Numbered from the stretch's first letter, positions 6,501-43,573 are shown. The stretch: 64,000 bases of DNA from Acidimicrobiia bacterium (GCA_024421085.1 JAHQYN010000003.1:4721-68720), one strand, 5' to 3'. Made by a program: numbers and translations. Notes: generated by a model from the sequence alone, not told the origin.

Positions 6501-9500
6501 TGCGGCTTCCCGTGACCCAGCGGGTCAATTCGCTGCGGTTGGTTCGCCCGGCGTCGTCGACGACCCTGGCGTCGATGCGGTAGCGACCGCCGACCGCAGC
6601 CTCGAACTCGCATGTGACCGGCGCATCCGCCGAGACCACGTCACAGGTTTCGGCGTCGACGGCCACCTCGGTCCATTCACCGTCGACGTACTCCTCAACG
6701 AGCCGAGACGCGGTCATCTCGAGGGACCGGTCGGCGACCGGGTCGCCGTCGAGATCGGTGACGACCGCTTCGATTTCAAGACCGTCGCCCTCCCGCACGA
6801 ACGTTCGGGTCGACCGAACACCGACATAGAGGTCCGCGGCATGCACCAGCACATCGGTCAACGATGCCCACCGCTGCAGGTTCACATCGACGACTTCGGC
6901 CTCTGCGGTGACCGTGGTCGGGAGGTGGTCGCCGTCGCCCTCGAAGTCCATGCGCAGATAATGGCTGCCCGCGGCGTCGGTCAAGCCGGAGAAGGTCTCA
7001 CGAACAGGTTCTGTCCAGGCATCGCCGAAGCCGTAGTCGAAGCCGTAGTCGATTGCCCAGTAGGTGTCAACGCCGCCGCCGAAGGCATCGTGGTGCCACC
7101 ACGGGGTCCACACACCGAACGTGAACTCGCTCCAGTTGGGCGGCGAGTAGGTCGCTGAGCGCGTGGTCACCGACCACGACACCTCGGCGTTCGGCAGAGG
7201 CCCGCCCGAGAAGTAGTTGGCGTCGACCGCCACGGTCGCGGGTTCGCCGACAAAGTACGGGCCGGCCGATTCGAGCCGAGTGGCCACTTCAAACTCGGGC
7301 CGACGGAACTCCTGGATCTGGAACGAGTGGTAGTGCCAGCTGTTGTCGAGGTTCTGCGGACCCTGGAACTCGATAAACCCTTCGCCCAGGTTCGCCCCCT
7401 CGGGCAACTCGACGGTGAGGTCGAACCCGCCGTGCTCGTCGAGGCGGACGCTGCCGTCGCCGAGCTCGTTGCCGAAAGGGTCGCTGGCCCGATAGCTGAC
7501 CAGTTGTCGAGGGGGAAGCAATTTCAGCCCCCCATCGCCGCTCAGCTCGAGGTTGCGGACCCAACCCTTCAGACGGAGCGTCTCGCCGGGGCGATACGTG
7601 CCGCGGTCATCGGCGGTGTACCAGATCAACTGGTCGGTTAGGGACCAGGCCTGACCGTTCGCCCGGTTTATCGCCTGGTCGTCGCCGAGCGTTGCGACGA
7701 TCCAGTTGAACTCGCTGCCGATCGAGGACCGTGCCAGTCCCTCGTCATCGGTGGTGAGGGTCGTGGTCTTGCCCTGCAGGTTGATTTCGACGTTTGCCAG
7801 GGGCTCGCCGGAGCTTAGGCCGGTCGTCCACACCACCACGTCTTGATGGTCGGTGATCATGTCGACGCCGATGTCGGTGTCCTGCACCCAGACGACAACC
7901 GGGCGGTTGGACCAGTATTCGTCGTCTTGGTGGGTCAGGTTCGCGAAGCGCCCGACCCCCTCGATGATCGCGATCGCATGGCCTCGGTCGCCGTCGAGGG
8001 CCTCGTCGAGATCGATGCGCACCTCTGTGACTGTGTCGGAAACAGCGCCGGTATCGACCACCTCGTCGGAGACGAGCGTCCAGGGCGCATCGGGCAGTGC
8101 TCCGCTGCGGGATCGTTCCATGCGTTCGAAGAAATCGACGAACGACTCGAAGTCGCTCGGGCTCACGTCGTAGAGCCGGACCCGCAGTCGGTCATGGTTC
8201 AGCACCGTCACCGGGACCGTCTGGCGTTCAACAAGCGGGTCGAGCGTCACGAGCCGCAGGCCTGGGGCGCTGATGAACGGACTGGTGTCGTCGGTATGGA
8301 ACTCGACGGTCACAGCCTCACCCAGCACCTGACCGAACTCGTCGGCGAGCGTCGCCGGGATCACCACTTCATAGACGGCGTCTCCCTGCGTCGGGCCGAC
8401 GATGTTGACCGAGTTGTATTCCACCCAGGCTCGGGCGCCCGCAAGCTCGGGGGTTATCTCCAGGTCGTCGAGATCGAGTGTTGCGGGGTCGAGAACATTG
8501 TTGAAGTAGATGCCGAGCCGACTCCCGGGCTGGCACGGATACCGCCGCGAACAGCTCGTCTCGTCGACGGCCAGGGCTGAATAGGTGCGGGCCTGCACTA
8601 CCTCCGCGGCGGCGGACGTCTTAGTTCCCTCGGCCGAAGGCACATGCGGCCCGACCTCGATGGTGATGTCGGTATCGGGTTCAAGCGCGGACACCGGCCT
8701 GAATGCGACCCAGGTGCCGTCGACGGTCACAGCGACGCGTCGCTTGATCTCCTCGTCGTCCTCGATCTCAGCTTCGGTGGCGAGCCTCAGGTCGTGTTCG
8801 GCGCCACCGGCGCTCAAGGTGATGGTCTCCAGCACCGAGTCAGCGTCGACTCGCTGATCGAAGGTGGCCAGAAAGACAGGCTGAAGCTTGAGCGAATCGT
8901 GCTGCGGGGTGAACGACAACATGTCGGGCGCTGGCGTCGCGAACTCGAAGCGGACGGTCTCGGCCAGTTCGCCGCCGGATTGCGAGGTCGTTGCGGCCGG
9001 AACCTCGACCACATAGGAGGTGGCCATCGGCAGGCGGTCGAAGACCTGCGGATCGTGCTCGAAACGGAGCGTGCGGGTGCCGATCCACTGCCACCGCCCC
9101 GGCGGCTGCGGAGTCATCGTCACCGGAACGTCGGTCGTGTCGATCTGGGCCAGCGTGGTCAGCGGCACCATCGGCTGATTGAAGGTGATGCTCATGAACG
9201 GAGCCAGCCCCACTTCACCGTCGGGCTGCACCCGCAGCACTTCCAGGGGCCCCGCCTCGACTGCGGGGGCGTCGACGTCGGAATCGGTGGGGAACGGATT
9301 GCCGACCGTGTCGCCGACGCGGGGCCTGCGAAGCGACTCCGCCGGCAAGTTGAAGGCATCTGCGTTGCGATCAGCGCCGGCGTCCCACTCCGGCAGTCGG
9401 TCAGTCACCGCGGTGATCTCCGCCTCCGTGAGCGTGCGGCCGACCACCCGGTCGACCAAGGCAAAGGTTTCAGCAGCGGTGGCCGAACCCTCGCTCAAGC

Positions 9501-22129: not shown

Positions 22130-22229
22130 ACTCCCGTGGGGTTATGTTTCCGGGCCCTCCTCGAAACCCTCACTCCGACCTAAAACGCGAAGCTCCAGGA
22201 TAGCTTCATCCAATTCTCAGAGATCGCGT

Positions 22230-22919
22230 CTATCTTGCTATCGCTCCGCCCGTCGCGGTTGCGTGAAGATCCCATGCGAAGTGAATCTGTTTGCGGTCAT
22301 TGTCTGCCAGCGAACCCGGACCTATGTGAAGGGCATGTGCTGTCGCGAAGAACGTACGGTGAGCGGCGTGGAGGGGCGCGTGAAAGTGGCGGAAGACGAA
22401 GTCGAGAAACCGCATGACGTGAAGCGGTGCAACGCAAGCGATCCGACAATCGACGCTGTTGATCGTAAAGTGGCTCGCAGGGTGCCCTTGGGCTGAGGTT
22501 TCGCTGTCGAAGTCAAAGCGAATCGGTGAGCGTAAGACTGCGTCGGAATCTCGGTAGAGGTCGACGATGTCGGCCAGTGGCTGCCCTTCCCTGAGCATAG
22601 CGTGGTCAAGGATGTACGGGCACGGGAAGTAGGAGAGACGATGCCGCGTGACCTCGCCGTCTTCCACCGTGTAAGAGAGCTGGATGAGGCTGCCGTCATA
22701 GAGCAGGGCCGAATAGTCACCGTTCGTGAGCCAGGTCACGTACTGGTCGATCGTCGGGTGCTCAAAGCTCTCAATGAGAGCGCCGTCGCGATGGAGAGGG
22801 TGCCACGACACCACATCCAGTCCCATCGAGACCTCAGTCGCGAACAGCGCCAGTTCCGCGTCACGCAGATAGTCAAGCGCGTTGCGAATCTGGTCTCGGA
22901 TAACCCTAACGGTCGCCAT
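22230..22919 (-). CDS. hypothetical protein, small partner of the upstream helicase (possibly DUF2290-like)
   Basis: 229-aa ORF in a lower-GC patch. Its start overlaps the helicase stop by 14 nt. No catalytic motif recognised. The DUF2290 idea rests only on gene-pair architecture recalled from memory. Confidence 0.55.
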   Translation of the reverse strand: MATVRVIRDQIRNALDYLRDAELALFATEVSMGLDVVSWHPLHRDGALIESFEHPTIDQYVTWLTNGDYSALLYDGSLIQLSYTVEDGEVTRHRLSYFPCPYILDHAMLREGQPLADIVDLYRDSDAVLRSPIRFDFDSETSAQGHPASHFTINSVDCRIACVAPLHVMRFLDFVFRHFHAPLHAAHRTFFATAHALHIGPGSLADNDRKQIHFAWDLHATATGGAIAR

Positions 22920-25056
22920 TTGCGATGTCGGACTTGAGGCTGTGGACTAGTTTGGTACGTAGTGCTGGCGGCAGATCGAGGAGATCCAGTTCTCCCCGCT
23001 CATAAGCCTCAAGGAACACGGAGAGGCCCTCGGTCGCTTTACGCAGTGATTCCTCGACACCCTGTGGTCGATCACGATGAAGGTGTCGCAGCTCCGCCAA
23101 CTTGCTACTCGTCGGAATAGTGAACTCAAGCTTATAGCCCTTGGAGCAGACGGTCTTAACCTCTTGCACTATCGGATCCATCTGCGCTCCCCACCCGGTG
23201 ATACGGACCCAGGCGCGGCTTCGCGTGATGGCCGTGAAGAGGCTGTTTCTCCTTGTGACTACGTTGAACTGCTCAGCCGCGTGCTGGCTATCGACCGCGT
23301 AAACCATCGGTGCCTCGTTGCCCTTGGCGCGGTATATGTGAGCTATTGCGACGGAGTCAGGCTGGAACACCACGTCAGCGCTTGTGTTGACTCCTACAAG
23401 GTGTGACTGGACACCTCGACGGCTGAGATGCCGCATCAGGCGCGGAGCGCGGGACTTCGCCGTGTAGGAGTCAGGAAGAACGATGAGGATGTCGTCGGGC
23501 TCAAGTTCGTCTTGCGACAAGTTACGCTCAATCTCGCTCGCGATCCGTGCGTCGTGCTCGTCCCGGGTCGAGAACGACCAGACCGCGATCGAGTCCGGCG
23601 CTTCAAGCAGCTCTGAGAAATACGATGGGTAGCTCGTGTCCGAACGCTCCAATGTCGCTGGCGAACCCCAAGACAGGTGCCCATGCACGACGTTGTAGCC
23701 GACCTCACGCCAGAGGGTTGGCTCGTCGGGGTGTTGAAGCAGTCCTTCATCGCGATAGACACCGACTCCAAGCGCATGCGCAGTCGCCAGCGCCCACGGA
23801 GTGTTTCGGTAGCAGACCGGGAGGACGATGTCGCGCCGAGGTTCTCCATCGGCTGAAGCGAGGCTGATCAAGTTCTCGCCGTTTGGACCAGTCCCAAACA
23901 ACTCGTCGGTGGTGGGCATGGCTGTCTCTGAGAGCTTCTGCAGTTCGTCGTAACCCCAGACAATCCGCTTCGGGTCTTTGGTAAACAGGTACACGAGCTG
24001 GAAGAACTCCGCTGGCAGATCCTGCGCTTCGTCGATCAGCACTGCGTCGAATATCGGTCGAACGTCATGTGAGCGGGCGACTTCGAGAAGTTCGCGGCAT
24101 GCACCTGCGAATGCCCCGTCCATCCCGTACTTGCCCCTCGCGTACGACCAGTTCCTCGCAGGCTCACCAAGCGCCGACGCGATCAAACTGTACGCACCGG
24201 CCCGGGCGCTCGACCCCCATGAGTGAATAATTCGGAGCCGGCTCTCATCGGGCGTATCGTTCGTGTGCTCGAACGTGAATCGAGTCACCAAGTCGTTGAT
24301 CTGTTGGTACAGGGCGCGGGAGTGGAAGGTCAGAGCGATGTGCCAGTCGGGATGTTGCGAGTGCCAGTAGGCGGCTTTCAGAGCTAGGACGACCGTCTTG
24401 CCTGATCCGGCGAGTCCGCGAATTCGCTGTGGCCCTTCTGGGCTCTCGATCGCAGCAGCTTTTTGCCATCGATCGAGGTTCGCGATGCCGCTCTCAATCT
24501 TCTTGAGGATGGCACCCCGCGAATTGTCCTTTGTTACCGCACTTCGCTTCTTGGCCGGCTTGATGGTCGTGACTCGCTGCAACGCGGCCTGTAGGTTTGT
24601 CTCAATCTCCGCAGAGATCGCGGGCAGATCCTTCACCCAGTCCCGAACCTTCTCTATCGAACCGTAGAACCCCTCTGAATCACTTGGTGCATTGGAGGGT
24701 GGAGTGTTGGCGAAAACTGTGGCCGTTTCGGGGCGTATCGCCACGCGCCGTCCTTCCCGAAGGCCTTCGTGGCGACTGAGGTGGCTCTCGAGGATCGCGA
24801 ACAGGCGATCCTGATCAGCGATGATCTTATTCCACTCCTCGTCGCACGTTGGCACCGAATCGGCTAGAAGGAACGCGACTAGTCCGTGCGCTCTGCACAC
24901 CAAGAGAGCGTCTACCTCAACACGCTCGTCTGCGGTCGCCAGCACCGGATAGCCAAGATAGACGGTCCCCTCCCCAACGACCGGTTGGAGTTGCTCAACC
25001 AACGCTTGGGCAATCGTTCGATTCCGGCTCTCGCCGTACACAACCTCAAGTGACAT
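22906..25056 (-). CDS. SF1 (UvrD/Rep-like) helicase with N-terminal NERD-like domain
   Basis: Walker A GLAGSGKTVVLA, Walker B VLIDEAQDL, and late motifs YRAKGNEAP and FTAITRSRAW. The N-terminal ~110 aa resembles a degenerate NERD module. Confidence 0.8.
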   Translation of the reverse strand: MSLEVVYGESRNRTIAQALVEQLQPVVGEGTVYLGYPVLATADERVEVDALLVCRAHGLVAFLLADSVPTCDEEWNKIIADQDRLFAILESHLSRHEGLREGRRVAIRPETATVFANTPPSNAPSDSEGFYGSIEKVRDWVKDLPAISAEIETNLQAALQRVTTIKPAKKRSAVTKDNSRGAILKKIESGIANLDRWQKAAAIESPEGPQRIRGLAGSGKTVVLALKAAYWHSQHPDWHIALTFHSRALYQQINDLVTRFTFEHTNDTPDESRLRIIHSWGSSARAGAYSLIASALGEPARNWSYARGKYGMDGAFAGACRELLEVARSHDVRPIFDAVLIDEAQDLPAEFFQLVYLFTKDPKRIVWGYDELQKLSETAMPTTDELFGTGPNGENLISLASADGEPRRDIVLPVCYRNTPWALATAHALGVGVYRDEGLLQHPDEPTLWREVGYNVVHGHLSWGSPATLERSDTSYPSYFSELLEAPDSIAVWSFSTRDEHDARIASEIERNLSQDELEPDDILIVLPDSYTAKSRAPRLMRHLSRRGVQSHLVGVNTSADVVFQPDSVAIAHIYRAKGNEAPMVYAVDSQHAAEQFNVVTRRNSLFTAITRSRAWVRITGWGAQMDPIVQEVKTVCSKGYKLEFTIPTSSKLAELRHLHRDRPQGVEESLRKATEGLSVFLEAYERGELDLLDLPPALRTKLVHSLKSDIANGDR

Positions 25057-29225: not shown

Positions 29226-30116
29226 ATGTCGATAGCACAACAAATCGCTGATCCCGGTGTCTGGCATTTCACCGACGGCCAAAGCGCCCAACAAGCCCAA
29301 GAGACCGCTGCGCGCATCGAGTCGCTCGGCTACTCCGCTCAATGGTTCGGCGAGGCGATGGGCAAGAACGCCTTCGTCAACGCCGCAACCCTGATCTCCG
29401 GCACCCGACGGCTGATCATCGCAACCGGGATCGCTGGCATCCACCTTCGTCATCCAGCGGCCATGCAGCAGGCGGGACTGGACCTCGCGGAGCTCTCGGG
29501 CGGTCGCTTCCTGCTCGGGATCGGAGTCTCGCACGCTCCCATGGTTGAAGGGCTTCGCAACCTGCCCTACGAAAAGCCGCTGTCCACGATGCGTACCTAT
29601 CTCGAAGCCATGCAGGGGGCGCTCATCATGCCCGCCCCCAAGGTCGAGCCGCCGCCCGTCGTGCTCGCCGCGCTCGGCCCGAAGATGCTCGCACTGTCCG
29701 CTGAGAAGGCCGCTGGCGCCCACCCCTACTGGACCACACCGGAGCACACAGCCCAAGCCCGCCAGATCATGGGGCCCGACGCTCTATTGTGCGTGGAACA
29801 GAAGTGCGTGCTGACCACCGACCGGGAGCTTGCGCACACCAGAGCAAACGAGCAGCTGCAGCTGTACGCCGCTCTCCCCAACTATCGCAACAGCTGGCTC
29901 CGCCTGGGTTTCAGCGAGGACGAGATCGACTCGCGCGCCGCTCGTTTCGTGGACGCGGTCGTGGCCTGGGGCACTGAAGACGACATTGCGGCGCGCATCT
30001 CGGCGCACTACGACGCCGGGGCCTCCCATGTCTGCATCCAGGCAGTGCCTGCTGACGGGAGCCGCGAGCACCCGGATTGGAATCTGCTCGACACCCTCGC
30101 CCCCAATGCACGATGA
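29226..30116 (+). CDS. LLM-class (luciferase-like) F420-dependent oxidoreductase
   Basis: Luciferase-like TIM-barrel features recognised by eye. Start reset to MSIAQQ. Confidence 0.75.
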   Translation: MSIAQQIADPGVWHFTDGQSAQQAQETAARIESLGYSAQWFGEAMGKNAFVNAATLISGTRRLIIATGIAGIHLRHPAAMQQAGLDLAELSGGRFLLGIGVSHAPMVEGLRNLPYEKPLSTMRTYLEAMQGALIMPAPKVEPPPVVLAALGPKMLALSAEKAAGAHPYWTTPEHTAQARQIMGPDALLCVEQKCVLTTDRELAHTRANEQLQLYAALPNYRNSWLRLGFSEDEIDSRAARFVDAVVAWGTEDDIAARISAHYDAGASHVCIQAVPADGSREHPDWNLLDTLAPNAR

Positions 30117-30210
30117 CCAGCCGGGCACGATGACCAGATGGGCACGATGATCAGATGGGGCACGATGATCAGCAGGGCACGATGAGCAGATGGGCACGAT
30201 GACCAGATGA
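30108..30210. repeat. six tandem 17-18-bp units (gcacgatgaccagatgg consensus)
   Basis: Read directly. Unit 1 contains the stop of the upstream gene (30114-30116). Unit 6 contains the ATG of the downstream gene (30207). Confidence 0.9.
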
Positions 30211-31277
30211 GTTCAGCGCCCTCCGGAATCGATCCTGACCCTGTGAGCGAATGGATTCTGATGCGTCGGGCGGATCTCGCCGTTCCGCTCGACTTCGAGT
30301 TGATCACCGGCGGCGCCTCCAACCTCACCTTCGCGGTCACTGACCAGTCGGGCCAAAGGCTGGTGCTGCGGCGCCCTCCGACAGGCCACGTCCTGCCCCG
30401 TGCCCACGACATGGCACGCGAGCATCGAGTCATCTCCGCGCTGCGCGACACCGAAGTGCCGGTCCCCGAAACCGTCGGCCTATGCACCGACGACTCCGTA
30501 AACGGCGCCGACTTCTACGTCATGGAGTTCGTCGAAGGCTCGATCGTCTTCAACGAGGCCGACGGCAACGCGGTGGACCCCGCATTGCGGCCGGCGATGG
30601 CGAACTCCCTCACCGACACGCTCGCAGCGCTGCACAAGATCGATCCCGCCTCGGTCGGACTCGGCGACCTCGGACGCACCGAAGACTATTGCGCCAGGCA
30701 GTTGCGCCGTTGGAAACGCCAGGTCGATGACGGTTCAGACCGAGTGGTGCCGCTGTTCGACGACCTGCATCAGAGGTTGACCCGGACCGTGCCCCCGCAA
30801 CAGGGCGCCGGGATCGTCCATGGCGACTACCGCTTGGACAACACCATGGTGGGCCCTGACGGAACGGTCGCCGCGGTGCTCGACTGGGAGCTATGCACAC
30901 TCGGCGACGTGCTCGCCGATGTGGCCAGCATGGCGATGTGGTGGGGCGACGACCCTCGCGCCACAGGCCGCCTGCGCGATGTGCCCACCAAGGCAGACGG
31001 CTTCGGATCACGCTCAGAGATGCTCGAGCGGTACGGACAAAACTCCGACCGCGACATCTCGGATCTCCCCTGGTACGTCGCCTTCCAACACTGGCGGATG
31101 TCAGCGATTAGCGAAGGGGTCCGAGTGCGCTACGCAGCCGGGGCCATGGGCGACCAGGACGGCACCGCCGACAGCGATACCAGAGCCAGCATCGACTCAA
31201 TGCTGCAGATCGCCGACGAGATCCTCACCAGCGGCCAGCTGTATCGACCAACAGACCCTGCCACCCTCACGCCTTAG
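30207..31277 (+). CDS. phosphotransferase family protein (APH/choline-kinase fold)
   Basis: IVHGDYRLDNTMV and VLDWELCTLGD catalytic motifs. Confidence 0.85.
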   Translation: MSSAPSGIDPDPVSEWILMRRADLAVPLDFELITGGASNLTFAVTDQSGQRLVLRRPPTGHVLPRAHDMAREHRVISALRDTEVPVPETVGLCTDDSVNGADFYVMEFVEGSIVFNEADGNAVDPALRPAMANSLTDTLAALHKIDPASVGLGDLGRTEDYCARQLRRWKRQVDDGSDRVVPLFDDLHQRLTRTVPPQQGAGIVHGDYRLDNTMVGPDGTVAAVLDWELCTLGDVLADVASMAMWWGDDPRATGRLRDVPTKADGFGSRSEMLERYGQNSDRDISDLPWYVAFQHWRMSAISEGVRVRYAAGAMGDQDGTADSDTRASIDSMLQIADEILTSGQLYRPTDPATLTP

Positions 31278-31332
31278 CCTTGACCCACCGGTGCGGTGAG
31301 GTGTTGGGGTGTGGGGTGTCGATCAGAAAGGC
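31276..31332. repeat. IS-end-like sequence, copy A (matches 35221-35277)
   Basis: 57-bp alignment with ~7 mismatches. The core ggtgttggggtgtggggtgtc is identical. Confidence 0.75.
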
Positions 31333-31342
31333 TTGGCAAGAT

Positions 31343-31610
31343 CTATCGGTGGTTGCGACAGAGCATAGTGTAGATGTGTTGTGTAGGTTTCCAGTTGTGG
31401 AGTTTGCGGGGCATGTGGTTGAGGGCGTCTTGGATGAGCGCGAGGTGTATGGGGTTTATGTTGAGGTTGGTGCCTTTGGGTAGCCAGCGTCGTAGGAGCC
31501 CGTTGGTTTGTTCGTTGCTGGGTCGCCGCCACGTTGCCGGAGACCTCCTTGGCGTGGCGAAGTACCGACAGGCGATGCCGGATCTCGCGTTGCTGCTCGC
31601 GGTCGTCCAT
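31343..31610 (-). mobile_element. IS30-family transposase remnant (short N-terminal piece fused out of frame to the C-terminal ~58 codons)
   Basis: A minus-strand frame reads NEQTNGLLRRWLPKGTNLNINPIHLALIQDALNHMPRKLHNWKPTQ...*, typical of an IS30 transposase C-terminus. Upstream, MDDREQQREIRHRLSVLRHAKEVSGNVAAT lies in another frame. Confidence 0.6.
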
Positions 31611-31718: not shown

Positions 31719-32678
31719 CTATCGCAGCATCTCGGCGCGGACCAGGTTCTCGAGGACATCGTCCGGTTCGATGCTATCGATCCAACGGACGAGTCCTTCC
31801 GCGTCGATAAGGGCGACGACCTGTTGGCTTTGGGCGTACTTGAGTGTTTGGTCACGGGCATCGCTGGTGAAAGTGGATGCCGAGAAGAGGATGCCCACGC
31901 GAGCGACCCCCGTGCGGTCCTGAACCTTCGAGTGGAGATCCCGCACCTCCTTTGCGGTGACGCTGGCTGACCAGTTCTTCGCCTCGATGAGGACGAACGG
32001 TACGTGTAGCTGCCAGCATCTCGACGACCAGTTGTCGACCTGCAGGACTAGGTCGACTTCATCTGTGCTGCCGCGGAGGTTTCGCTCTACCACACGAAAG
32101 TCGGCAACCTGTTGCAACAGAAACGCCAGCAGCCCTTCGAAACGTCGACCTTTCTCGAAGTTCGTGCCCTCCGATCGGAGATCCCAGGCCTTCTTGGCGA
32201 TAGCCGTACGGGTTTCATAGTCGACTGCGACCGCGCAGTCAGACAGAGCAGTCAAGATGTGAGCGCGCCCCGAGGGAGATCCACCCGGTTTAACCACGAT
32301 GACCTCGGCATCGATCGCTCCGAGGAACCGGACTGTGTCGCTCTCGTACAGAGCGTCGAGCCGAAGTGTGACGACGACTGAGCAGCCCACCTGTTGCGCC
32401 ATTGCAAGCCGGGCTTGCATGTGGGGTCGCAGCTCGTCGGCAATGTGGACGTACAGAACGAGGTCGGGATCGCCGGCACCGACCAATGACGGCCGCCAGG
32501 CCATACCCTTCTCGGAGCGGATCGCCTCCCCCGACTCGGACCAGTCGGAAGTCGCCAACAGTGCCTTGACTATGGGCTCGCTTGTCGGGCCGACCATAGA
32601 CTCCGGGATCTCGATGCCCTCCGGTTCGAGATCCTCGTCCGCGTAGGGCAGTTCGTCCTCGTTGCCAAACTCACTCAC
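31719..32678 (-). CDS. restriction endonuclease, Mrr-cat type PD-(D/E)xK C-terminal domain
   Basis: FEGLLAFLL...STDEVDLVLQV...FVLIEAKNW (D...ExK). The N-terminal ~150 aa is unassigned. Its start overlaps the ParB-like stop by 8 nt. Confidence 0.7.
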   Translation of the reverse strand: MSEFGNEDELPYADEDLEPEGIEIPESMVGPTSEPIVKALLATSDWSESGEAIRSEKGMAWRPSLVGAGDPDLVLYVHIADELRPHMQARLAMAQQVGCSVVVTLRLDALYESDTVRFLGAIDAEVIVVKPGGSPSGRAHILTALSDCAVAVDYETRTAIAKKAWDLRSEGTNFEKGRRFEGLLAFLLQQVADFRVVERNLRGSTDEVDLVLQVDNWSSRCWQLHVPFVLIEAKNWSASVTAKEVRDLHSKVQDRTGVARVGILFSASTFTSDARDQTLKYAQSQQVVALIDAEGLVRWIDSIEPDDVLENLVRAEMLR

Positions 32679-33663
32679 CGCCGGCGTTCTCCGCGATCAC
32701 TCGCTTGAGTTGCTGGGCGAACCGCTCCGCGATGCCCATGACCATAGCTCGCTCCTCATTGCCCGTAGCCCGCGCGAACAGCCGGTCAAAGCCCTTGATC
32801 ATGTTCTCAGTTGATCGGTCGAGCTTGTCAGCTTCCACCATTATCTGAACGGTGTCTTCATACGCCGTCGCGATCGTGAGATCCGGGTCCTGCAAGAGTC
32901 GGCGGAGCGTGTCGTCGAGCACCGAGTCGTCACTATCAGACGCCTCTGCATCCTTGCCGGCGTAGTTGATGATCGGCCGAACATCCCGGAGCGAGACTGT
33001 GTCGGTGATCGTCCCACCGAGCCGCTTCGCTACAAATGCGCTACGTACCGCATCCTCCCCGAACTCCTCGTGGAGCTTCGGACGCTTGTTTGCCAACGGT
33101 TGGATGACGTTCCGGTGCAGCTCCCAGAACCAGTTGAGCGGAATCGTGCCTTCCTGGATGTAGTGCTGGTACTCGTCCGGCAATTGGACGGCGTACCTGA
33201 GACGCTTCACACGCTCCTGAGACAGGCCAGTCCGGTCGGCGAGAGCTCGATCAGACGGAGTGGCCGCGCCGTCGGCCTTCATCGCATCTTCCAGTTCCCT
33301 GAGTGCGATCGCCGTTGGCATATCGCGCCATGGTTCGCGCATCTGGTGGATGTTGAACATCGAGACAAGATTCTCGATGTCGCCCTTCCGGTCGGTAATG
33401 AGAGCCGGCACCGACTCGAGCCCTAACCGAAGTGCACACCGAAACCTGCGCTCACCATCGATGAGCGTGTACTTCCCATCGTCTTCGGGATACACGACGA
33501 TTGGAACGAGGATGCCCTCCTGGTGAATCGACTCGGCAAGGCGATCAAGCTCTTCCTCGGGGAAGACGAGACGTGGGTTTCGTGGGTTTGCCTGAACGGC
33601 GGTGACAGACAGGTCTTGGACCTGCGCAGCGTTGGGTGGGCCTGAGTCAGTTTGTGAGGACAT
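32671..33663 (-). CDS. ParB/Srx N-terminal domain protein with GERR box and HTH
   Basis: ILVPIVVY...YTLIDGERRFRCAL (GERR box at 33433-33456) followed by an HTH-like ALADRTGLSQERVKRLRY. Start reset to MSSQTDS (33663), overlapping the methylase stop by 17 nt. Confidence 0.8.
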   Translation of the reverse strand: MSSQTDSGPPNAAQVQDLSVTAVQANPRNPRLVFPEEELDRLAESIHQEGILVPIVVYPEDDGKYTLIDGERRFRCALRLGLESVPALITDRKGDIENLVSMFNIHQMREPWRDMPTAIALRELEDAMKADGAATPSDRALADRTGLSQERVKRLRYAVQLPDEYQHYIQEGTIPLNWFWELHRNVIQPLANKRPKLHEEFGEDAVRSAFVAKRLGGTITDTVSLRDVRPIINYAGKDAEASDSDDSVLDDTLRRLLQDPDLTIATAYEDTVQIMVEADKLDRSTENMIKGFDRLFARATGNEERAMVMGIAERFAQQLKRVIAENAGGE

Positions 33664-34852
33664 GGATGAACTCTGTGTTGTCGTTGGTGCTCGCGCCCTT
33701 GGATGCGCCGAGTGTGGAGTGCTTGGTGGCGAACGAGCGAGTGATGATCGTGCGAAAGTGCTTCGTAGCGAGGTCGCGAATATCAGTTCCGCGGCGAGAG
33801 AGAAGACTTCGCTCGGGATAGCTGAGGACGAGCGGGAACCCAAGCTCCGACACGCCCCGGAGCAAGTCTTCAAAGGCGCTCTCGACTGAGCCGCTCTCTG
33901 AAAACTTCGACGAGAATCTCCCAGCGCGGTAGCGACCCCGACCGATCGAGTCCGGGAAGTCGTAGAGAAAAAGGGTCTCGTGGACGTGGTAATAGCGCGA
34001 GTACTGATCCTTCGTGTACGGCGGATCCGCGTACACCGCTCGGACCTGATCCGACTTGAGCTGCGGCAGCAGATCTAGAGCGTCGCCGTTCTGAAACTCA
34101 TTCTGGACCCTCCACGCCGGCGAGCCGGATGGTGCGAACTCCGCCAAGGTATCCACAAACACCGACCACACGTCTCGCCGCCACACCCTCACAATCCTCT
34201 TCTGGGCGGCCTCGGAGTTCGGGCGCAAGAATTGGGCAGAGTGACCAGGGCTATTGAGACAACGATCCACCGTGCCGAGGAAGGCAGCGAGTGCCTGATC
34301 ATGGCTGCGCTCGTCATCGAGCGAGGCGATGGCATAGCGGATTGCGTCGAGCTGTACGGCCTGCCAGGTGGAGAAGTAACCGCCAGAGAAATAGAGCACC
34401 GTCAGGCAGTACCTCCCGGGCCCGCGGCGACGCGCGGCCAGCCGAGCCTGTCGCCTGCACTCGTCGGACGTGCCGACATGCGGCACGTCCTCCATGTAGG
34501 CGAGAAGATCTGATGGCCTCCTAAGGAGTACATCTCGCTCGTGCTGTAGACGACCGTCGAACTCAACGGCGAGAGCCTTGCATCGCGCCTCATAGTGTGG
34601 TGCCAGTTGGTCCAGGAGACGGAACGGCGCAACCCGCTCCTCGTGGACGAACCGCGATCGAAGTAGCGGGCCGAGGAAGGCGCTCGCGTCATTCATGACG
34701 ACTGAAGCGACGCCATCCAACTCAGAGGTAGCTGCCCCGGTGCCGCAGAAGAGGTCCACAACACGTGCGCTCGCATGCCTCGGTGGGAGATCGGAGATGA
34801 TTTGTGCAACGGGGTCAGCCAGGAACCGCTTGGTCCCCATGTAGCGAATCAT
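33647..34852 (-). CDS. D12-class (Dam-like) N6-adenine DNA methyltransferase
   Basis: N-terminal YMGTKRFL...VVDLFCGTGA and motif IV VYADPPYTKDQY. Confidence 0.85.
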   Translation of the reverse strand: MIRYMGTKRFLADPVAQIISDLPPRHASARVVDLFCGTGAATSELDGVASVVMNDASAFLGPLLRSRFVHEERVAPFRLLDQLAPHYEARCKALAVEFDGRLQHERDVLLRRPSDLLAYMEDVPHVGTSDECRRQARLAARRRGPGRYCLTVLYFSGGYFSTWQAVQLDAIRYAIASLDDERSHDQALAAFLGTVDRCLNSPGHSAQFLRPNSEAAQKRIVRVWRRDVWSVFVDTLAEFAPSGSPAWRVQNEFQNGDALDLLPQLKSDQVRAVYADPPYTKDQYSRYYHVHETLFLYDFPDSIGRGRYRAGRFSSKFSESGSVESAFEDLLRGVSELGFPLVLSYPERSLLSRRGTDIRDLATKHFRTIITRSFATKHSTLGASKGASTNDNTEFIHVLTN

Positions 34853-35220
34853 CTGCAGCTCGCCCCACGACTCAGTTCGAGGCCACGTACTAGTTCGCCC
34901 GGGTCAATCGACAAATGGCGCGCTAGCACGAGAAGCGTATGAAGCGTCACGTTCTTTTCGCCACGCTCTATGTGACCCATGTAGCTCCTGTCGATGTGGC
35001 ACTCCAAAGCGAACGCCTCCTGCTAGTAGCCCTGACCGGAGCGTAGGGCCCTGATACGACGGCCTAGCTTAGCTGCAGCATTCGCCGCGTCGAACGCGGC
35101 CGTCGTCTCGGCGACGGTGGCGATGCGCTCGGGCAGCGCGTTGACTGCTACCTGGGCAGCGTCGTCACCGTACGGACACCCGCCGAGCCCGTCTGCGACA
35201 GCAATCATCCACGATCCGTC
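34849..35220 (-). pseudogene. XRE/controller-type HTH gene interrupted by an in-frame TAG and fused to a PP2C-like fragment
   Basis: The frame reads ...[60 protein letters not shown].... The TAG (35023-35025) sits where S/T of a GLSQE-type helix normally lies. The stop overlaps the methylase ATG (ATGA). No own start codon is seen near the HTH. Confidence 0.55.
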
Positions 35221-35813
35221 AGCCTGGATCCACCGGTGTGGTGCGGTGTTGGGGTGTGGGGTGTCCACTAGAAAGGCCTCCTCACATGGGAGAATGCTGT
35301 CGTTGGAGACAGGCATTTCGAACATGTGAGGAGGCACTTCCTGTGAGCCGCATATCTGGTGGGATTGATGGGGTGGAGGTTCATTTCGATGACGGGTCTT
35401 TGGTGGGGGATGCGGGTTTGTCGTTGGCGGGCACGGTGATGGATCGTTTGGGGCTTGAGGCGATGGTTGATGAGGTGGTGCGTCCGCCGAGTTCGGGGCG
35501 GGGGTCGGGCGCGAAGGCGTTGTCTGTGGTGGCGTCGATGCTTGTGGGCGGTTCGTTCATCGACGACGCTGACAGGCTGCGGTCGGGGTCAACAGCTCAG
35601 GTGCTGCCCGTTGAGGTGTCGGCGCCGTCGACTTTGGGAACGTGGCTGCGGTCGTTCACGTTTGGGCATCTGCGCCAGTTCGACCGTGCTCAGGAACTGG
35701 CGTTGGGGCGGGCGTGGTCTGTGGGCGCGGCACCTGGCTCGCCTTCCAAGCGGGCTGGCGGCTCGGTGACGCGGCCGGGAGCGGCCCAACCGCGAGCGCC
35801 CCAAGATAGGTGA
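35221..35813 (+). mobile_element. 5' portion of an IS1380-family element: terminal sequence copy B, 12-bp inverted-repeat hairpin, truncated transposase
   Basis: From GTG 35343: VSRISGGIDGVEVHFDDGSLVGDAGLSLAGTVMDRLGLEAMV...SMLVGGSFIDDADRLR resembles an IS1380 transposase N-terminus, with only ~135 aa of homology. cctcctcacatg (35277-35288) pairs with catgtgaggagg (35323-35334). Confidence 0.65.
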
Positions 35814-36228: not shown

Positions 36229-36276
36229 CCTTCAACAGGACCACCCTTCAACAGGACCACCCTTCAACAGGACCAC
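36229..36276. repeat. three perfect tandem copies of ccttcaacaggaccac (16 bp)
   Basis: Read directly. It lies between the convergent 3' ends of the Rdx-family gene and the LOG gene. Confidence 0.9.
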
Positions 36277-39471: not shown

Positions 39472-42294
39472 ATGGTCGCCGCCGACACCGATACTTGGGA
39501 CTACCCCGGCGCACGCTGGTGGAGGTTTGATTTTCACACACACACGCCGGCTTCGTGCGACTATCGGAACAACGAGGTGAGACACGACGAGTGGCTGCTG
39601 GGATTCATGCGAGCCGGCATTGATTGCGTCGCCGTCACAGATCACAACTCCTGCGCTTGGGTGGACGGGCTCAAATCGGCACTGGTCCGGATCGAAGAGG
39701 AACGGCACCCTGACTTCCGGCGACTTCATCTTTTTCCTGGTGTCGAAATCACCGCGAACGACGGTACACATGTGCTCGCTCTCTTCGATCCGAGCAGGGC
39801 ATCAAGCGACGTGGACCGACTATTGGGCGCAGTGGGCTACCAAGGAGTTTCAGGCAAGAGCGATCGGGCCGCCGACAGCTCGGTGGCCCAGATCGGGAAA
39901 GTAGTCGGTGAACACGGGGGCATTGCAATCCCCGCCCACGTTGACCAAGCCCGGGGCCTGTGGCGGATGCCGGGAAATACGCTGAAGCCGGTGCTAACCG
40001 CTAATTCCGTGTTCGCTGTCGAAGTCGTGGACCCGACCGAAGCGAAACCAGACCTCGTCCACCAGCACGCGTCGCACTGGGCAGAAGTGCTCGGCTCGGA
40101 TACGCATGGTCTCGCCGGAGGAGCCGTTAACGTGCCGGGGTCCCGCTACACATGGATAAAGATGGAACGGCCGTCCATTGAGGGTCTACGCTTGGCGCTG
40201 CTTGACGGTATAGGGTTCTCTGTTCGGCGGAGCGACGACCCGGATCAACCCGACCAATCCTTGCCCAAGCATCATGTGAAAGCGATCTCTATTTCCAAAG
40301 CGCGGTTGATGGGGAACGGAGAACCTGTCAAGCTTGAATTCAGCCCGTGGCTCAACGTGCTCGTCGGCGGTCGCGGGACTGGCAAGTCGACTGTTCTGAA
40401 CTGTACGCGACTCGCCGCGAGACGCGAGGCCGACCTGGACCGACTCGATGAAAACAGCATTTCCAGGAGCACGTTTGATCGATTCAACAATGTACCGCGC
40501 ACCCGCGACGACGATGGAGGCCTCAGGGAAGACACCCGCATCGAGTTGGTGGTTTCACGAGACAGTGTGACCCATCGGATTAGTTGGGATCAAGCGCCGA
40601 AGCCTGATGCTAATGTTGTCGAGACTCAGGATGATGAGCACGAATGGACCGCTTCAACCTCGCAAATAGTCAATGCCGATCGATTTCCCATTCGGGTGTT
40701 CAACCAAGGCCAAATTGCCGAATTAGCAAGCGACAACCAGGCTGCGCTGCTGGACCTGATCGATGAAGGTGCGAGCAGCGAAGACTGCCAACGTAAGCTG
40801 GAAACGGCGCGTCGCACATTCTTAGCTACACGTGCACGAATTCGCGAGATTCAGGTTGAACTAGAGCGGACCGAGGAGGTGAAGGTCGCTCTTGAGGACA
40901 CTGTTCGGGCGCTCTCGCGGATCGAGGAAGCGGGATACGCAACCGCGTTTCAGGCCTTTCGTGAAACTGAACGTCAGGAACGCGAGATTGAACGGCATTT
41001 CGCTGTCGCAGAGCAATCGGTCACCCAAATCGACCGGGTCGCCGATCAGATTCAATCTGAAGACATTCTGGAGGCCGTCTTTGATGAAAATCCCAGCAAT
41101 GGCAGTGAGCGCTCTGCACTAGACATTGTGGAATCGCTGCGCTGTGTTGTTGACGATGCCAAGACGGCACTGCGCGAAGCAAGCGCCGCTGCGCACGGAG
41201 TCATCAAGCAACAGCGGGAGACGTTGCAGACGAGTCCGTGGCGTTCCAAAACAAGACAGGCGCAGGCTGCGTACGATCTAGCAGTAGAGACACTCGCACA
41301 AGCTGGCCTCGGCGACGCCAGATCGCATGCTGAATTGGTTCAGGAGCACCAGGAGTTGAATTCCGAACGGGACCGCCTCGCCGAACTGCGTCTAGAACTC
41401 GGCGAGACGCAAGAGCGAGCGAACGAACAATTGGGAGAGCTGCTCCAGGCTCGTCGCGCGCTTAGTGATGTCCGATCGAAGTTCCTTAGCGAAACCCTCG
41501 CGCATAGTGATTACGTGCAAATCCGGCTTGTGCCGTATGGTGACAATCCACGAACGATCGCGCGCTCGCTGAGAGACGCCCTCGGTATCGCCGACGATCA
41601 TCGATTCCTTGATGATATCGGCAACACGGATGAATCAAGTTCCGACTCGGGTCTTGTACACGGTTTGATCGACAGTCTTCCCCGAGATCCCGAAGAGCGA
41701 CGCATCGAGTTTGAGAAGCGGTTGGAGTCGACGCGTCAAGAGATTGTCGAGTCCGTCGAGAGCGATGAAGGATTCGGCGGGCACTTTATCAACTATCTCC
41801 AACGTCAACACGATCGCAGCGAGGATTTCGTAGATCGGATGCTGACGTGGTTTCCACCAGACAGCCTGAATGTGAAGCACAGCCTCGCTGCCGATGGAAA
41901 AGAGTTCAGGCCGATCGGGCAGGGTTCAGCAGGTCAGCGATCCGCCGCAATGTTGGCATTCTTGCTTGCGCACGGTGATGAACCGCTGGTGCTCGACCAA
42001 CCTGAGGACGACTTGGACAACCAACTCATCTTCGACCTCGTTGTCAGGCAGATGAGCGAAAACAAGTTGCGCCGCCAGATCATCGTCGTTACTCATAATC
42101 CAAACATCGTGGTGAACGGCGATGCCGAGATGCTGCACGTTTTTGACTTCAAGAACGGCCAGTGCATCGTCGCGGAATCAGGTTCACTGCAGAATGTCGA
42201 GATGCGTGAGCAGGTATGCAAGGTTGTGGAAGGTGGCCGGTTCGCCCTTGAACAGCGGTATCGGCGGCTGGAAGCAGGTCGCTTCAATGCTTGA
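39472..42294 (+). CDS. PHP-domain phosphoesterase fused to a Rad50/SMC-like ABC ATPase (940 aa)
   Basis: PHP motifs FDFHTHTPAS, VAVTDHN, IPAHVD, GSDTHG. Walker A GGRGTGKST (40366-40392). A long helical spacer, a signature-like SAGQRS, Walker B LVLDQPEDDLD, and VVTHNPN. Confidence 0.85.
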   Translation: MVAADTDTWDYPGARWWRFDFHTHTPASCDYRNNEVRHDEWLLGFMRAGIDCVAVTDHNSCAWVDGLKSALVRIEEERHPDFRRLHLFPGVEITANDGTHVLALFDPSRASSDVDRLLGAVGYQGVSGKSDRAADSSVAQIGKVVGEHGGIAIPAHVDQARGLWRMPGNTLKPVLTANSVFAVEVVDPTEAKPDLVHQHASHWAEVLGSDTHGLAGGAVNVPGSRYTWIKMERPSIEGLRLALLDGIGFSVRRSDDPDQPDQSLPKHHVKAISISKARLMGNGEPVKLEFSPWLNVLVGGRGTGKSTVLNCTRLAARREADLDRLDENSISRSTFDRFNNVPRTRDDDGGLREDTRIELVVSRDSVTHRISWDQAPKPDANVVETQDDEHEWTASTSQIVNADRFPIRVFNQGQIAELASDNQAALLDLIDEGASSEDCQRKLETARRTFLATRARIREIQVELERTEEVKVALEDTVRALSRIEEAGYATAFQAFRETERQEREIERHFAVAEQSVTQIDRVADQIQSEDILEAVFDENPSNGSERSALDIVESLRCVVDDAKTALREASAAAHGVIKQQRETLQTSPWRSKTRQAQAAYDLAVETLAQAGLGDARSHAELVQEHQELNSERDRLAELRLELGETQERANEQLGELLQARRALSDVRSKFLSETLAHSDYVQIRLVPYGDNPRTIARSLRDALGIADDHRFLDDIGNTDESSSDSGLVHGLIDSLPRDPEERRIEFEKRLESTRQEIVESVESDEGFGGHFINYLQRQHDRSEDFVDRMLTWFPPDSLNVKHSLAADGKEFRPIGQGSAGQRSAAMLAFLLAHGDEPLVLDQPEDDLDNQLIFDLVVRQMSENKLRRQIIVVTHNPNIVVNGDAEMLHVFDFKNGQCIVAESGSLQNVEMREQVCKVVEGGRFALEQRYRRLEAGRFNA

Positions 42295-43573
42295 CAATCG
42301 CGGTGAATTGCTTGAGGCGATTCGACTGGGCGAGACCAGCTTTCTTGAACTCAAAGAAGTACGCTTCTCAGGACTCAAGGTTGCAGGCCCGTCTCGCGAT
42401 GATCTGGCGGATGAAATCGCGGCATTCGCGAACAGCCGGGGCGGAGTACTCGTTCTCGGAGTAGAGGACAGCTCCCGTGACATCATCGGTGTCCCCGATG
42501 ACAGGCTTGATGCTGTTGTCAACTTCGCGAAGGAAATTTGCAACGACTCCATCACTCCGCCGGTCGAGCAGTTCGTGTTGGATCGAGTGTCGCTGCCTTC
42601 CGCTACCGGGCGCATGGCAAGCGTCGTGAAACTTGAGGTGCCACGGAGCCTCTTTGTGCACCGTAGCCCGGGGGGATACTGGCATCGTGCCGGTGACTCG
42701 AAACGAATCATGACGCCAGATTTGTTGGCTCGGCTCTTTCAACAACGCAGTCAGACGCGGCTGATCCGGTTTGATGAGCAAGCCGTGACCAACGCGCGCA
42801 TCGGTGATCTCTCAGAGGAGTTGTGGGCGCGATTCCGCACCCCGCGTTCGGACCATGAACCGGAAACGTTCTTGGCCAAACTCGGTATGGCCGTGCGAGC
42901 CCACGATGGCGCTGTCAGGCCGTCAGTTGCGGGAGTTCTGATAGGCAGCGACGCACCCGAACAATGGTTACCGAACGCATATGTGCAAGCAGTGGCGTAT
43001 CGGGGCACGTCGGTCCTCCCCGAAAGCGTCGCCATGAACTATCAACTCGACGCGTCTGACTTCACTGGACCGTTGGATCGGCAGGTCATCGAGGCCAGTC
43101 GATTCGTCTCCAAGAACATGCGTCAGGGCGCATCCAAGGTAGTCGGACGTGTCGACGAACCCCAATTCGACATGGCTGCCGTATTCGAGGCGTTGGTGAA
43201 CGCTGTCGCTCACCGAGACTACGCGATCCACGGAGCGAAGATACGGCTGCGCCTCTTCGATGACAGACTGGAACTGTTCTCGCCCGGTGCGTTGGCGAAC
43301 TCGTTGACAGTCGACTCGTTGCGGTACCGCCAGACGGCGCGCAACGAAACGGTATGCAGTCTGCTGACGCGATGTACCGCGCCTGACGAGCCGTGGTTGA
43401 CCATCGGTCGTGCACACCTGATGGAAAAACGCGGCGAGGGAGTGCCGATAATACTCGACAGCAGCACGGCGCTCTCGGGGCGCGAACCCGAATACCGCGT
43501 GCTCGACGATGCGGAGCTGATGCTGACCATACACTCCGCGAACAAGAACCCATCGGTGGCTGACGGTGGTTGA
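42287..43573 (+). CDS. AlbA_2 (Schlafen-like) domain protein with C-terminal HATPase_c_4-like domain
   Basis: ETSFLELKEV...EIAAFANSRGGVLVLGVEDSSRDIIGV (AlbA_2) and VFEALVNAVAHRDYAIHGAKIRLRLFDDRLELFSPGAL. Start reset to MLDNRGELL, overlapping the upstream stop by 8 nt. Confidence 0.8.
   Translation: MLDNRGELLEAIRLGETSFLELKEVRFSGLKVAGPSRDDLADEIAAFANSRGGVLVLGVEDSSRDIIGVPDDRLDAVVNFAKEICNDSITPPVEQFVLDRVSLPSATGRMASVVKLEVPRSLFVHRSPGGYWHRAGDSKRIMTPDLLARLFQQRSQTRLIRFDEQAVTNARIGDLSEELWARFRTPRSDHEPETFLAKLGMAVRAHDGAVRPSVAGVLIGSDAPEQWLPNAYVQAVAYRGTSVLPESVAMNYQLDASDFTGPLDRQVIEASRFVSKNMRQGASKVVGRVDEPQFDMAAVFEALVNAVAHRDYAIHGAKIRLRLFDDRLELFSPGALANSLTVDSLRYRQTARNETVCSLLTRCTAPDEPWLTIGRAHLMEKRGEGVPIILDSSTALSGREPEYRVLDDAELMLTIHSANKNPSVADGG

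Follow-up and report, generated by a model that had tools for sequence, protein, structure and literature searches.

A ParB/Noc-type protein as the predicted hub of a conserved methyltransferase–effector cassette in an Acidimicrobiia bacterium

What is a protein of the ParB/Noc type doing between the modification enzyme and the nuclease of an apparent restriction-modification operon? The question is raised by a stretch of 64,000 nucleotides from an Acidimicrobiia bacterium (GCA_024421085.1 JAHQYN010000003.1:4721-68720; hereafter the window), in which three minus-strand genes overlap one another. They encode a DNA adenine-N6 methyltransferase (MTase) of a divergent D12 class (401 aa, 33647..34852), a ParB/Noc-type protein (330 aa from its ATG, 32671..33663) and a nuclease (319 aa, GTG start, 31719..32678). 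The overlaps comprise 17 nt between the MTase and ParB genes (33647-33663) and 8 nt between the ParB and nuclease genes (32671-32678). When the window sequence was checked, all features of the original prediction were present; every gene call, coordinate and overlap was correct, and the assignment of the products to the D12 MTase, ParB and Mrr_cat families agreed with the Pfam, NCBIfam and PADLOC profiles.

The MTase matches Pfam MethyltransfD12 (2.4e-10) and PADLOC MTase_II (3.7e-19) and carries motif I (FxGxG, present as DLFCGTG) and motif IV (DPPY, residues 276-279). Fifty-three residues, including F35, G37 and D276-P-P-Y279, are invariant among 30 operon homologues. No sequence relative of the MTase was found in the PDB and, judged by its weak Pfam score, this protein of about 400 aa is an atypical D12 enzyme. 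The nuclease contains an Mrr_cat domain (Pfam, 7.5e-13, residues 177-300). Its PD-(D/E)xK catalytic residues (31977..32054, minus strand), D209 (32052-32054) and E232-A-K234 (31977-31985), are invariant as D209 and E232-x-K234 in an alignment of 29 sequences (the window nuclease and 28 database homologues) and are retained in most operon homologues, so that the domain is not catalytically dead by alignment. The AlphaFold2 (AF2) model of the nuclease (pLDDT 89.8) gave weak Foldseek matches to the cleavage domains of MspJI, EcoO109I and FokI. An active-looking MTase and a PD-(D/E)xK endonuclease thus appear to share one operon, as in Type II systems. The catalytic domain is also that of E. coli Mrr (Type IV), but the Mrr_N winged-helix reader of that protein is replaced by an alpha/beta domain (approximately residues 30-170) with invariant W46, W61, P63 and R90; only Mrr_cat was detected, with no Mrr_N and no wHTH matches. 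Methyl-dependent cleavage is argued against because the nuclease is co-encoded with a MTase. This conserved N-terminal domain of about 140 aa could be the nuclease's own DNA reader, in which case ParB would not be needed for targeting. Its Foldseek resemblance to chains of short-pAgo systems was weak, with low TM scores, and was not regarded as meaningful.

The protein between the two enzymes is clearly related to the DNA-clamp ParBs. It matches Pfam ParB_N (3.4e-22) and TIGR00180 parB_part (81 bits against a cutoff of 58 bits, over residues 13-172), and its homologues begin at the same MS... position as the window ATG start. The best Foldseek matches of its AF2 model (pLDDT 91.2, pTM 0.79) were Noc, ParB bound to CDP or CTPgS, and KorB, with the helix-turn-helix (HTH) included. 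By sequence it is closest to DNA-clamp ParBs (1e-19 to 1e-23), Srx and SerK being found at 1e-5. The central ParB-type HTH (approximately residues 138-171, 33151..33252) is supported by TIGR00180, by AF2 helices at 138-171, by an alignment with Spo0J/Noc reaching residue ~176 and by a HMMER alignment spanning the HTH of 6sdk and 7nfu. The phosphate-binding box II, GERRFRCA (residues 70-77, 33433..33456), is intact, DGERR is invariant across the family and the four phosphate-binding arginines R31, R72, R73 and R109 are all retained. In place of the canonical ENLQRE stands a box III signature of the family, MFNIHQMREPW (residues 102-112, 33328..33360), which is invariant across intact triplet loci and retained in distant clades. 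At one locus (L037) the N-terminus of ParB is disrupted.

The original prediction took the intact GERR box as the mark of a CTP-dependent clamp. The box stood up to the comparison, whereas the CTP clamp did not follow from it. In the HMMER alignment to 6sdk, N104 corresponds to E111 of Bsu ParB and E135 of Cc ParB, and H106 to Bsu N112 and Cc N136; the positions of Caulobacter Q58, E135 and N136 are occupied throughout the family by N29, N104 and H106. In Caulobacter ParB, the N136A mutant no longer binds CTP, and hydrolysis is lost in Q58A and in E135A (PMC8367383). As three CTPase-relevant residues are substituted, the use of CTP is uncertain, and nucleotide binding, clamp closure and hydrolysis may differ from those of ParB or be absent. 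Neither sequence nor AF3 can predict which nucleotide a protein of the ParB fold prefers (PMC12704722).

The protein also departs from the ParB/Noc/KorB clamps, with which it shares the order of ParB_N fold and HTH, at its C-terminus. Instead of the ParB dimerization domain it has an all-helical domain of about 150 aa (residues 176-330, 32674..33138), and past residue ~93 Pfam gave no match except one spurious one. Only 46 representative clusters among 1.84 billion matched this domain, essentially all of them proteins of ~305-331 aa that share the layout of the window protein, or pieces of such proteins, and no PDB match was obtained by sequence or fold. Nor does the protein resemble a component of a partition system: its N-terminus, MSSQTDSGPPNAAQ, read directly, has no ParA-binding motif of the LG(R/K)GL type, no ParA-type gene adjoins the gene in any context looked up, and no parS is known for it. 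Unlike the clamps, it is encoded inside a MTase-effector operon and is absent from plasmids; tblastn found no family member in PLSDB (72,556 plasmids) or INPHARED (50,697 phage genomes), and a plasmid or phage origin of the cassette was therefore rejected.

The three genes belong together. In a survey of GTDB species representatives whose ParB is at least ~38% identical to that of the window, the order MTase-ParB-Mrr and the common strand were kept in 29 of the 32 loci, an arrangement far beyond chance adjacency. Conservation of the triplet, on which the original prediction depended, was thus found across phyla. The loci come from Actinomycetota, Gammaproteobacteria, Acidobacteriota, Planctomycetota and Verrucomicrobiota, a wide and patchy spread, and their flanks always differ. 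The MTase and ParB genes overlap by 11-20 nt in 21 of 31 loci, and ParB and effector genes overlap or lie within 31 nt of each other. Of the three products ParB varies least: its median identity to the window is 49%, while the MTase reaches 43% and the nuclease 34%. Look-ups from the ParB side, metagenomic contexts among them, returned the full triplet in all five cases; from the nuclease side it was full in two of three, the third being a truncated remnant. At locus L059, the nuclease gene is intact although the MTase is lost, together with the half of ParB that comprises the NTPase and HTH; this single case is consistent with a nuclease that does no harm when ParB is missing. A fourth component was sought in the large ORFs which lie immediately upstream in several loci, but these were rejected as housekeeping genes (IcmF-like mutase, class II RNR, UvrA-like, GH3).

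Many of the flanks are mobile or defence-related (integrase, HipBA, AICE genes, ApeA, Nmad2/DUF4238 with a type III-like RM, TrwC/zeta toxin); others consist of housekeeping genes. In the window, the cassette has an Hma-type methylase and a helicase on one side and a Ppl gene on the other, and its GC content is 60%, against 65% in the flanks. It is bounded by a 57-nt direct repeat on the plus strand, the right copy at 35221..35277 and the left one, 88% identical, at 31276..31332. Homology with a related cassette (L052) stops at the inner edge of the right repeat. IS remnants flank the cassette, and no tRNA integration site was found in the window.

Distant members of the ParB family retain the NPR and DGERR motifs, box III in the form MFNIHxxRExW, the HTH and the C-terminal domain. 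Across the family as a whole, ParB is accompanied by the 400-aa D12 variant or, in the distant members, by canonical D12/Dam enzymes (Pfam 1e-42 to 1e-60) or N6_N4_Mtase proteins, the MTase gene being upstream, downstream or divergent. Whatever the position of the MTase, the gene directly after ParB always encodes a putative effector: the Mrr_cat nuclease, a PRTase which matches PADLOC PRTase_III-A (retron-III-A-type) at 5e-35, a 235-aa protein followed by a gene of ~110 aa, or a DUF4145-like protein. No PDB sequence relative of the 235-aa effector was found. A docking domain shared among the effectors was rejected at the sequence level, hhalign giving a probability of 0.5% for the Mrr-like family against that of the 235-aa protein. 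Because the relatives keep ParB and change both MTase and effector, ParB is, on this comparative evidence, the constant core around which the two partners are interchanged. Since both the effector and the MTase family differ among the relatives, the input is likely to be the methyl mark itself and not any one MTase protein, with ParB as the adaptor.

Our preferred reading, held tentatively and with somewhat less than even confidence, is that the cassette is a mobile, translationally coupled immune module similar to restriction-modification systems, with ParB as an additional obligatory subunit. The MTase would mark the resident DNA. The ParB-type hub would bind DNA through its HTH, using its nucleotide-binding N-terminal domain as a switch, and would read whether the DNA carries the methyl mark; its private C-terminal domain would then license the protein encoded immediately downstream. 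In the window, the licensed PD-(D/E)xK (Mrr_cat) nuclease would cut unmarked DNA, and in the relatives ParB would license another effector, coupling the methylation state to an interchangeable output. The earlier suggestion that ParB loads at a site and licenses or recruits the nuclease now stands as the leading model, a proposal to which the exchange of effectors around a constant ParB lends indirect support. A more specific form of it is conceivable but doubtful: a clamp of the canonical ParB branch would serve as a reader of self and non-self, loading on unmarked DNA, switching with nucleotide, sliding or accumulating, and licensing the downstream effector.

An unlikely alternative to the licensing hub is that ParB is a transcriptional controller, bound to an operator by its HTH and perhaps spreading or clamping like KorB or VirB, in an otherwise ordinary Type II pair, where it would time effector expression against that of the MTase, or limit it, as a C protein or DndB does. 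KorB, VirB and DndB are indeed ParB-family regulators (PMC12704722, PMC10853773), R-M systems need delayed expression of the nuclease, the HTH is conserved and KorB is among the structural matches. A genuine controller gene, however, belongs to this sublineage. Upstream of the MTase lies the pseudogene of an RM controller (C) protein (34849..35106, minus strand, HTH_3; PADLOC Control_protein, 8e-09), whose stop overlaps the MTase ATG. Compared with its intact 85-aa homologue in L052, its start was changed from ATG to ACG (35104-35106) and a TCG codon to an in-frame TAG (35023-35025); the same inactivated state occurs in four independent assemblies. The controller gene normally carried by the sublineage is thus dead in the window genome, as had been predicted, and the window copy, with this pseudogene and the flanking IS remnants, may be poorly expressed or decaying. 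The further idea that ParB replaced the dead controller had to be abandoned because close relatives (L052-L054), with a ParB 92% identical to that of the window, carry an intact controller gene together with ParB; most family members have no controller gene at all. The coexistence of ParB with a dedicated C protein also speaks against the controller reading. Moreover, no shared palindrome, operator or parS-like site was found upstream of the MTase in 31 loci, a long AT-rich palindrome being present there only in the two Marinicella loci. ParB is more conserved than either enzyme, retains its 150-aa private domain and nucleotide pocket, and is always encoded immediately upstream of the effector wherever the MTase lies. 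Effectors such as the PRTase are not DNA-specific and would need a sensor, more than a repressor.

It is similarly improbable that ParB is a cofactor of the MTase, an NTP-driven clamp or remodeller that delivers or activates the methylase on dsDNA beside an autonomous restriction enzyme. Precedents exist in the DpdB ATPase, which is required for base exchange by DpdA (PMC10164549), and in the phage ParB176, which activates its T-dioxygenase, 5mYOX176, on dsDNA (PMC13229309). In addition, the end of the MTase gene runs into the beginning of ParB at 21 of the 31 triplet-clade loci, and the 400-aa MTase is an atypical D12 protein. The relatives, however, use canonical Dam-type or N6_N4 MTases, families which work alone elsewhere, and their genes follow that of the effector or lie on the other strand. 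The constant feature is adjacency to the effector, not to the MTase, and one protein-specific activator for three unrelated types of MTase is unlikely.

Very unlikely, in our estimate, is a role of ParB as an enzymatic effector in its own right, acting as a nuclease or as an NTPase that consumes nucleotides like Osa or ToxB, with the Mrr-like protein as a second effector. Some proteins of the ParB/Srx fold do act as toxins through nuclease or ATPase activity (PMC10853773; ToxB preprint), and the altered residues of boxes I and III suggest changed chemistry, but the full ParB HTH and clamp-type architecture retained here are missing from the toxin and enzyme forms, and the nearest relatives by sequence and fold are the clamp ParBs, far ahead of Srx and SerK. 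Chance or historical accident, in which a mobile island's orphan ParB of the partition type was caught inside an ordinary Type II operon, is hardly credible and is contradicted by the survey: orphan ParBs are common on mobile elements (PMC12704722) and NCBI labels the protein 'ParB/RepB/Spo0J family partition protein', but the order and tight junctions are conserved across phyla, ParA neighbours and plasmid or phage copies are missing in the contexts and collections searched, the C-terminal domain is found only in this architecture, and distant members are still linked to a MTase and an effector.

The licensing-hub reading sets the cassette apart from the systems which it resembles. With Type II C-M-R operons it shares the m6A MTase, the PD-(D/E)xK nuclease, a C gene overlapping the MTase start in the sublineage, mobility and a place among other defence genes, but in 29 of the 32 loci M and R are separated by a third protein, better conserved than either of them, the 'R' slot of relatives holds non-nuclease effectors such as the PRTase, and the family and position of the MTase vary. 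Precedents for the hub are ParB-superfamily NTPases that act as sensors or cofactors in modification-restriction, namely SspE, GmrSD and NsnA (PMC12065111), DpdB (PMC10164549) and the 5mYOX ParB (PMC13229309), and DndB, SspE, GmrSD, DpdB and Menshen NsnA are all similar to the cassette in having an NTP-binding sensor, regulator or cofactor of this superfamily in a modification-restriction or defence operon. The DUF262 branch, however, carries DGQ(H/Q)R and DUF262/ParBDB, whereas the cassette protein has DGERR, ParB_N/TIGR00180/Noc matches and the ParB HTH, and the modification it is paired with is plain methylation. Fusions of ParB with a MTase in phages and plasmids, and the ParB-terminase-MTase loci of phages, likewise combine a ParB N-domain with an adenine or N4/N6 MTase (PMC4738411, PMC12704722), and PADLOC MTase_II PDLC03229 matches the cassette ParB domain weakly. 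In contrast to these, the cassette ParB is a separate, full-length, chromosomal protein with an HTH and its own C-terminal domain, coupled to an effector and not found in phages.

PADLOC 2.0 has no system model for the cassette, giving only generic MTase_II and Control_protein matches, weak matches of ParB (E >= 1.6e-4) to a ParB-MTase fusion model and PD-Lambda-5_A, and weak matches of the nuclease to PDC-S02 and mREase_IV; the distant-clade ParB and its uncharacterized effectors had no match. In agreement with the original prediction, no description of the architecture was found in PADLOC 2.0 or in the searchable literature, in which coverage of subscription journals is incomplete; literature matches on Druantia and Asgard proved irrelevant. 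A restriction-like module with a ParB hub is thus apparently undescribed.

At present, annotation calls the genes 'partition protein', 'DNA adenine methylase' and 'restriction endonuclease' and makes no connection among them; the tools used to find defence systems do not recognize the three as one system. Orphan ParBs are numerous on mobile elements and their functions are largely unassigned (PMC12704722); the family described here gives one orphan-ParB clade a concrete three-gene context with clear genetic predictions. If the doubtful clamp-reader form is true, a ParB-type nucleotide-gated clamp would replace an ATP-driven translocase for long-range DNA communication in a restriction-like system, and the ParB/Noc branch would have its first known part in defence. 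Should ParB prove to be the hub, the reach of ParB switches would extend from segregation, nucleoid occlusion and transcriptional silencing into immunity, and R-M-like systems would include an architecture in which an adaptor that reads DNA stays constant and both its partners, modification enzyme and effector, can be exchanged.

The three overlapping minus-strand open reading frames of the original prediction are present exactly at the positions proposed for them, and the overlaps of 17 nt and 8 nt were confirmed. The first gene (34852..33647) encodes a 401-aa methyltransferase (MTase) of the D12 class, with the motif I DLFCGTG and DPPY at residues 276-279, which matched Pfam with 2.4e-10 and PADLOC MTase_II with 3.7e-19. 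The second gene (33663..32671) encodes a 330-aa ParB-type protein matching Pfam ParB_N (3.4e-22) and, above cutoff, TIGR00180 over residues 13-172, HTH included; the GERRFRCA box read from it earlier was found at 33456..33433. This protein is 100% identical to an annotated protein of an Acidimicrobiaceae MAG. The third gene (32678..31719) encodes a 319-aa nuclease with an Mrr_cat match (7.5e-13) over residues 177-300. The GC content of the cassette is ~60%, compared with ~65% in its flanks.

The triplet is conserved in other genomes. The ParB-like query retrieved 608 clusters, with conservation across the full ~325 aa, and the order MTase-ParB-Mrr was found in all contexts from Rhodanobacter, Micromonospora and three metagenome contigs, whose flanks are unrelated and mostly of mobile or defence type. 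When one genome of each GTDB species was scanned, 46 loci were obtained; all three homologues of the window proteins occur, with order and strand kept, at 29 of the 32 loci with ParB identity of at least ~38%. The hosts belong to Actinomycetota, Gammaproteobacteria, Acidobacteriota, Planctomycetota and Verrucomicrobiota, and the junctions between the genes are tight across the loci. A canonical 282-aa Dam replaces the 400-aa MTase in two more of the 32 loci (L022 and L024), and the N-terminus of ParB appears frameshifted in L037. The family was not found among 72,556 plasmids and 50,697 phage genomes, and parA was not a neighbour in any context inspected. Of three look-ups that started from nuclease homologues found independently of ParB, two led to the full triplet; at the remaining one (locus L059), the nuclease adjoins a truncated ParB remnant and no MTase is present. 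In this decayed module (L059 4345-5945), only 130 aa from the C-terminus of the ParB-like protein are left (60% identical); an intact Mrr-like ORF comes next, and an IS630-type transposase adjoins. An intact nuclease gene persists there without its MTase. Both Marinicella loci (L032 and L033) carry a near-perfect AT-rich palindrome with 19-nt arms (ATATTATAATTGAGTATTG...) ~90 nt upstream of the MTase start. No comparable palindrome was found in the other loci, and it may be a lineage-specific operator.

The AF2 model of the ParB-type protein was confident (pLDDT 91, pTM 0.79), and its N-terminal and HTH domains matched Noc, ParB bound to CDP or CTPgS, and KorB. The sequence scores were 1e-19 to 1e-23 for Spo0J, ParB and Noc, whereas those for Srx and SerK were 1e-5. 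The phosphate-binding arginines R31, R72, R73 and R109 (R60, R103, R104 and R139 in Caulobacter ParB) are all retained, as is E71 (E102). The equivalents of Caulobacter Q58, E135 and N136 are N29, N104 and H106, which are invariant in the family. In Caulobacter ParB, N136A abolished CTP binding, while Q58A and E135A abolished hydrolysis (PMC8367383), and according to a recent survey the ParB fold can bind CTP, ATP or GTP unpredictably (PMC12704722). The protein is therefore likely a nucleotide switch, which may use CTP, hydrolyse its nucleotide and act as a clamp.

Distant relatives (~30% identity), including those from Chloroflexota and archaea, keep the motifs NxxNPR, GILVP, DGERR and MFNIHxVRExW, the HTH and a C-terminal helical domain of equal size. 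This C-terminal domain matched 46 of 1.84 billion representative clusters, essentially all of them proteins of the same layout or fragments thereof, and by this comparison it is private to the family. The distant relatives also lie in tight operons, with different partners: a canonical D12 MTase, ParB and unknown proteins of 235 aa and ~110 aa in Microbacteriaceae-type and other loci; ParB, a DUF4145-like protein and a D12 MTase in L036 and L044; ParB, a PRTase (5e-35 with PADLOC type III-A retron effector models) and an N6_N4 MTase in Nitrosopumilaceae; and a divergent N6_N4 MTase adjoining ParB plus unknown proteins in Bathyarchaeota. A DNA MTase of one family or another is present in nearly all loci examined, and the gene directly 3' of ParB encodes a putative effector in every one. 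ParB is the sole constant component of the module.

The nuclease model was confident as well (pLDDT 90). Its catalytic residues, D209 and E232-x-K234, do not vary among the database homologues, and W46, W61, P63 and R90 are invariant in the N-terminal alpha/beta domain, for which no convincing match was obtained. A Solirubrobacterales/Actinomycetota subgroup (L025-L027, L029, L030 and L037; nuclease gene ~6950-7900) has T-A-K-N-E in place of E-x-K; the acidic residue may have migrated there, or the nuclease may be inactive. The nuclease of one further locus (L018) is degraded.

Directly upstream of the MTase gene, the ORF 35007..34849 represents the C-terminal half of a protein of the RM controller type (PADLOC Control_protein, 8e-09). 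The related cassettes L052-L054 (ParB 92% identical) contain an intact 85-aa HTH controller gene, the stop of which overlaps the MTase start. Compared with this gene, the start codon of the copy in the window is abolished (ATG to ACG) and a TAG has been acquired. The inactivation is real, since the identical state was found in four independent assemblies. The suggestion that ParB replaces the inactivated controller did not hold, because ParB coexists with an intact controller in L052-L054 and a controller is missing altogether from most members of the family. A fragment of a PP2C phosphatase (~100 aa; 35023-35337, minus strand) is continuous, in frame, with the dead controller gene. Since L052 has this fragment too, upstream of its intact controller, it is an old part of the cassette lineage and no local accident.

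A 57-nt direct repeat (31276-31332 and 35221-35277; 88% identical, the only two copies in the window) brackets the cassette, and the homology to the L052 cassette stops at the inner edge of the right copy. For this repeat, an origin as an IS end or as a recombination scar is probable. Its right copy closely precedes a truncated transposase-like ORF (35238-35813, plus strand), and an HTH transposase remnant (31323-31610, minus strand) is situated inside the left end. The cassette is placed among defence genes, as follows from two stretches. At 19382-25056, where the GC content is lower (0.59-0.62), a 915-aa DUF1156 plus D12-like methylase (PADLOC HmaB, E=0) adjoins a 716-aa UvrD-like protein (PADLOC 'Helicase' PDLC03002, 2e-199); the pair resembles an Hma-type defence system. 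At 39472-43573, where the GC content (~0.57) is the lowest in that part of the window, a 940-aa AAA_21/AAA_23 protein (PADLOC Ppl, 2e-133) precedes a 483-aa protein with Schlafen AlbA_2 and HATPase_c_4 domains. Two tandem repeats were also observed: an array at 30091-30226 in which a 17-18-nt unit (GGGCACGATGAYCAGAT) occurs about 7-8 times, between the genes of a luciferase-like oxidoreductase and an APH-family kinase, and three perfect copies of the 16-nt unit CCTTCAACAGGACCAC at 36229-36276.

The data show a cohesive, mobile and methylation-linked module with the ParB-type protein as its hub. We favour the view that ParB would act as a DNA-bound adaptor coupling the methylation state to the downstream effector. 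Both the family and the position of the MTase vary, which implies that the mark matters and not one specific MTase protein; the adjacency of ParB and effector is invariant, ParB is the slowest-evolving component, and a sensor would be required for some of the effectors, which are not DNA-specific enzymes. That ParB serves instead as a regulator, or as a cofactor of the MTase, is possible, the two being about equally probable; a role as an enzyme-type effector is possible too, at a lower rank than either.

Members of the ParB superfamily have been described from modification-restriction and defence systems (DndB, SspE, GmrSD, DpdB, NsnA and the phage 5mYOX ParB), as have ParB-MTase fusions and ParB-terminase-MTase loci of phages. 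These belong to the DUF262/DGxQR branch or have no HTH, whereas the protein described here is a canonical-branch GERR+HTH ParB, encoded as a separate protein in one operon with a plain MTase and an exchangeable effector. PADLOC 2.0 contains no model for the module and no description was found in the searchable literature. Research on ParB proteins and research on defence systems thus both have reason to take a real interest in the module.
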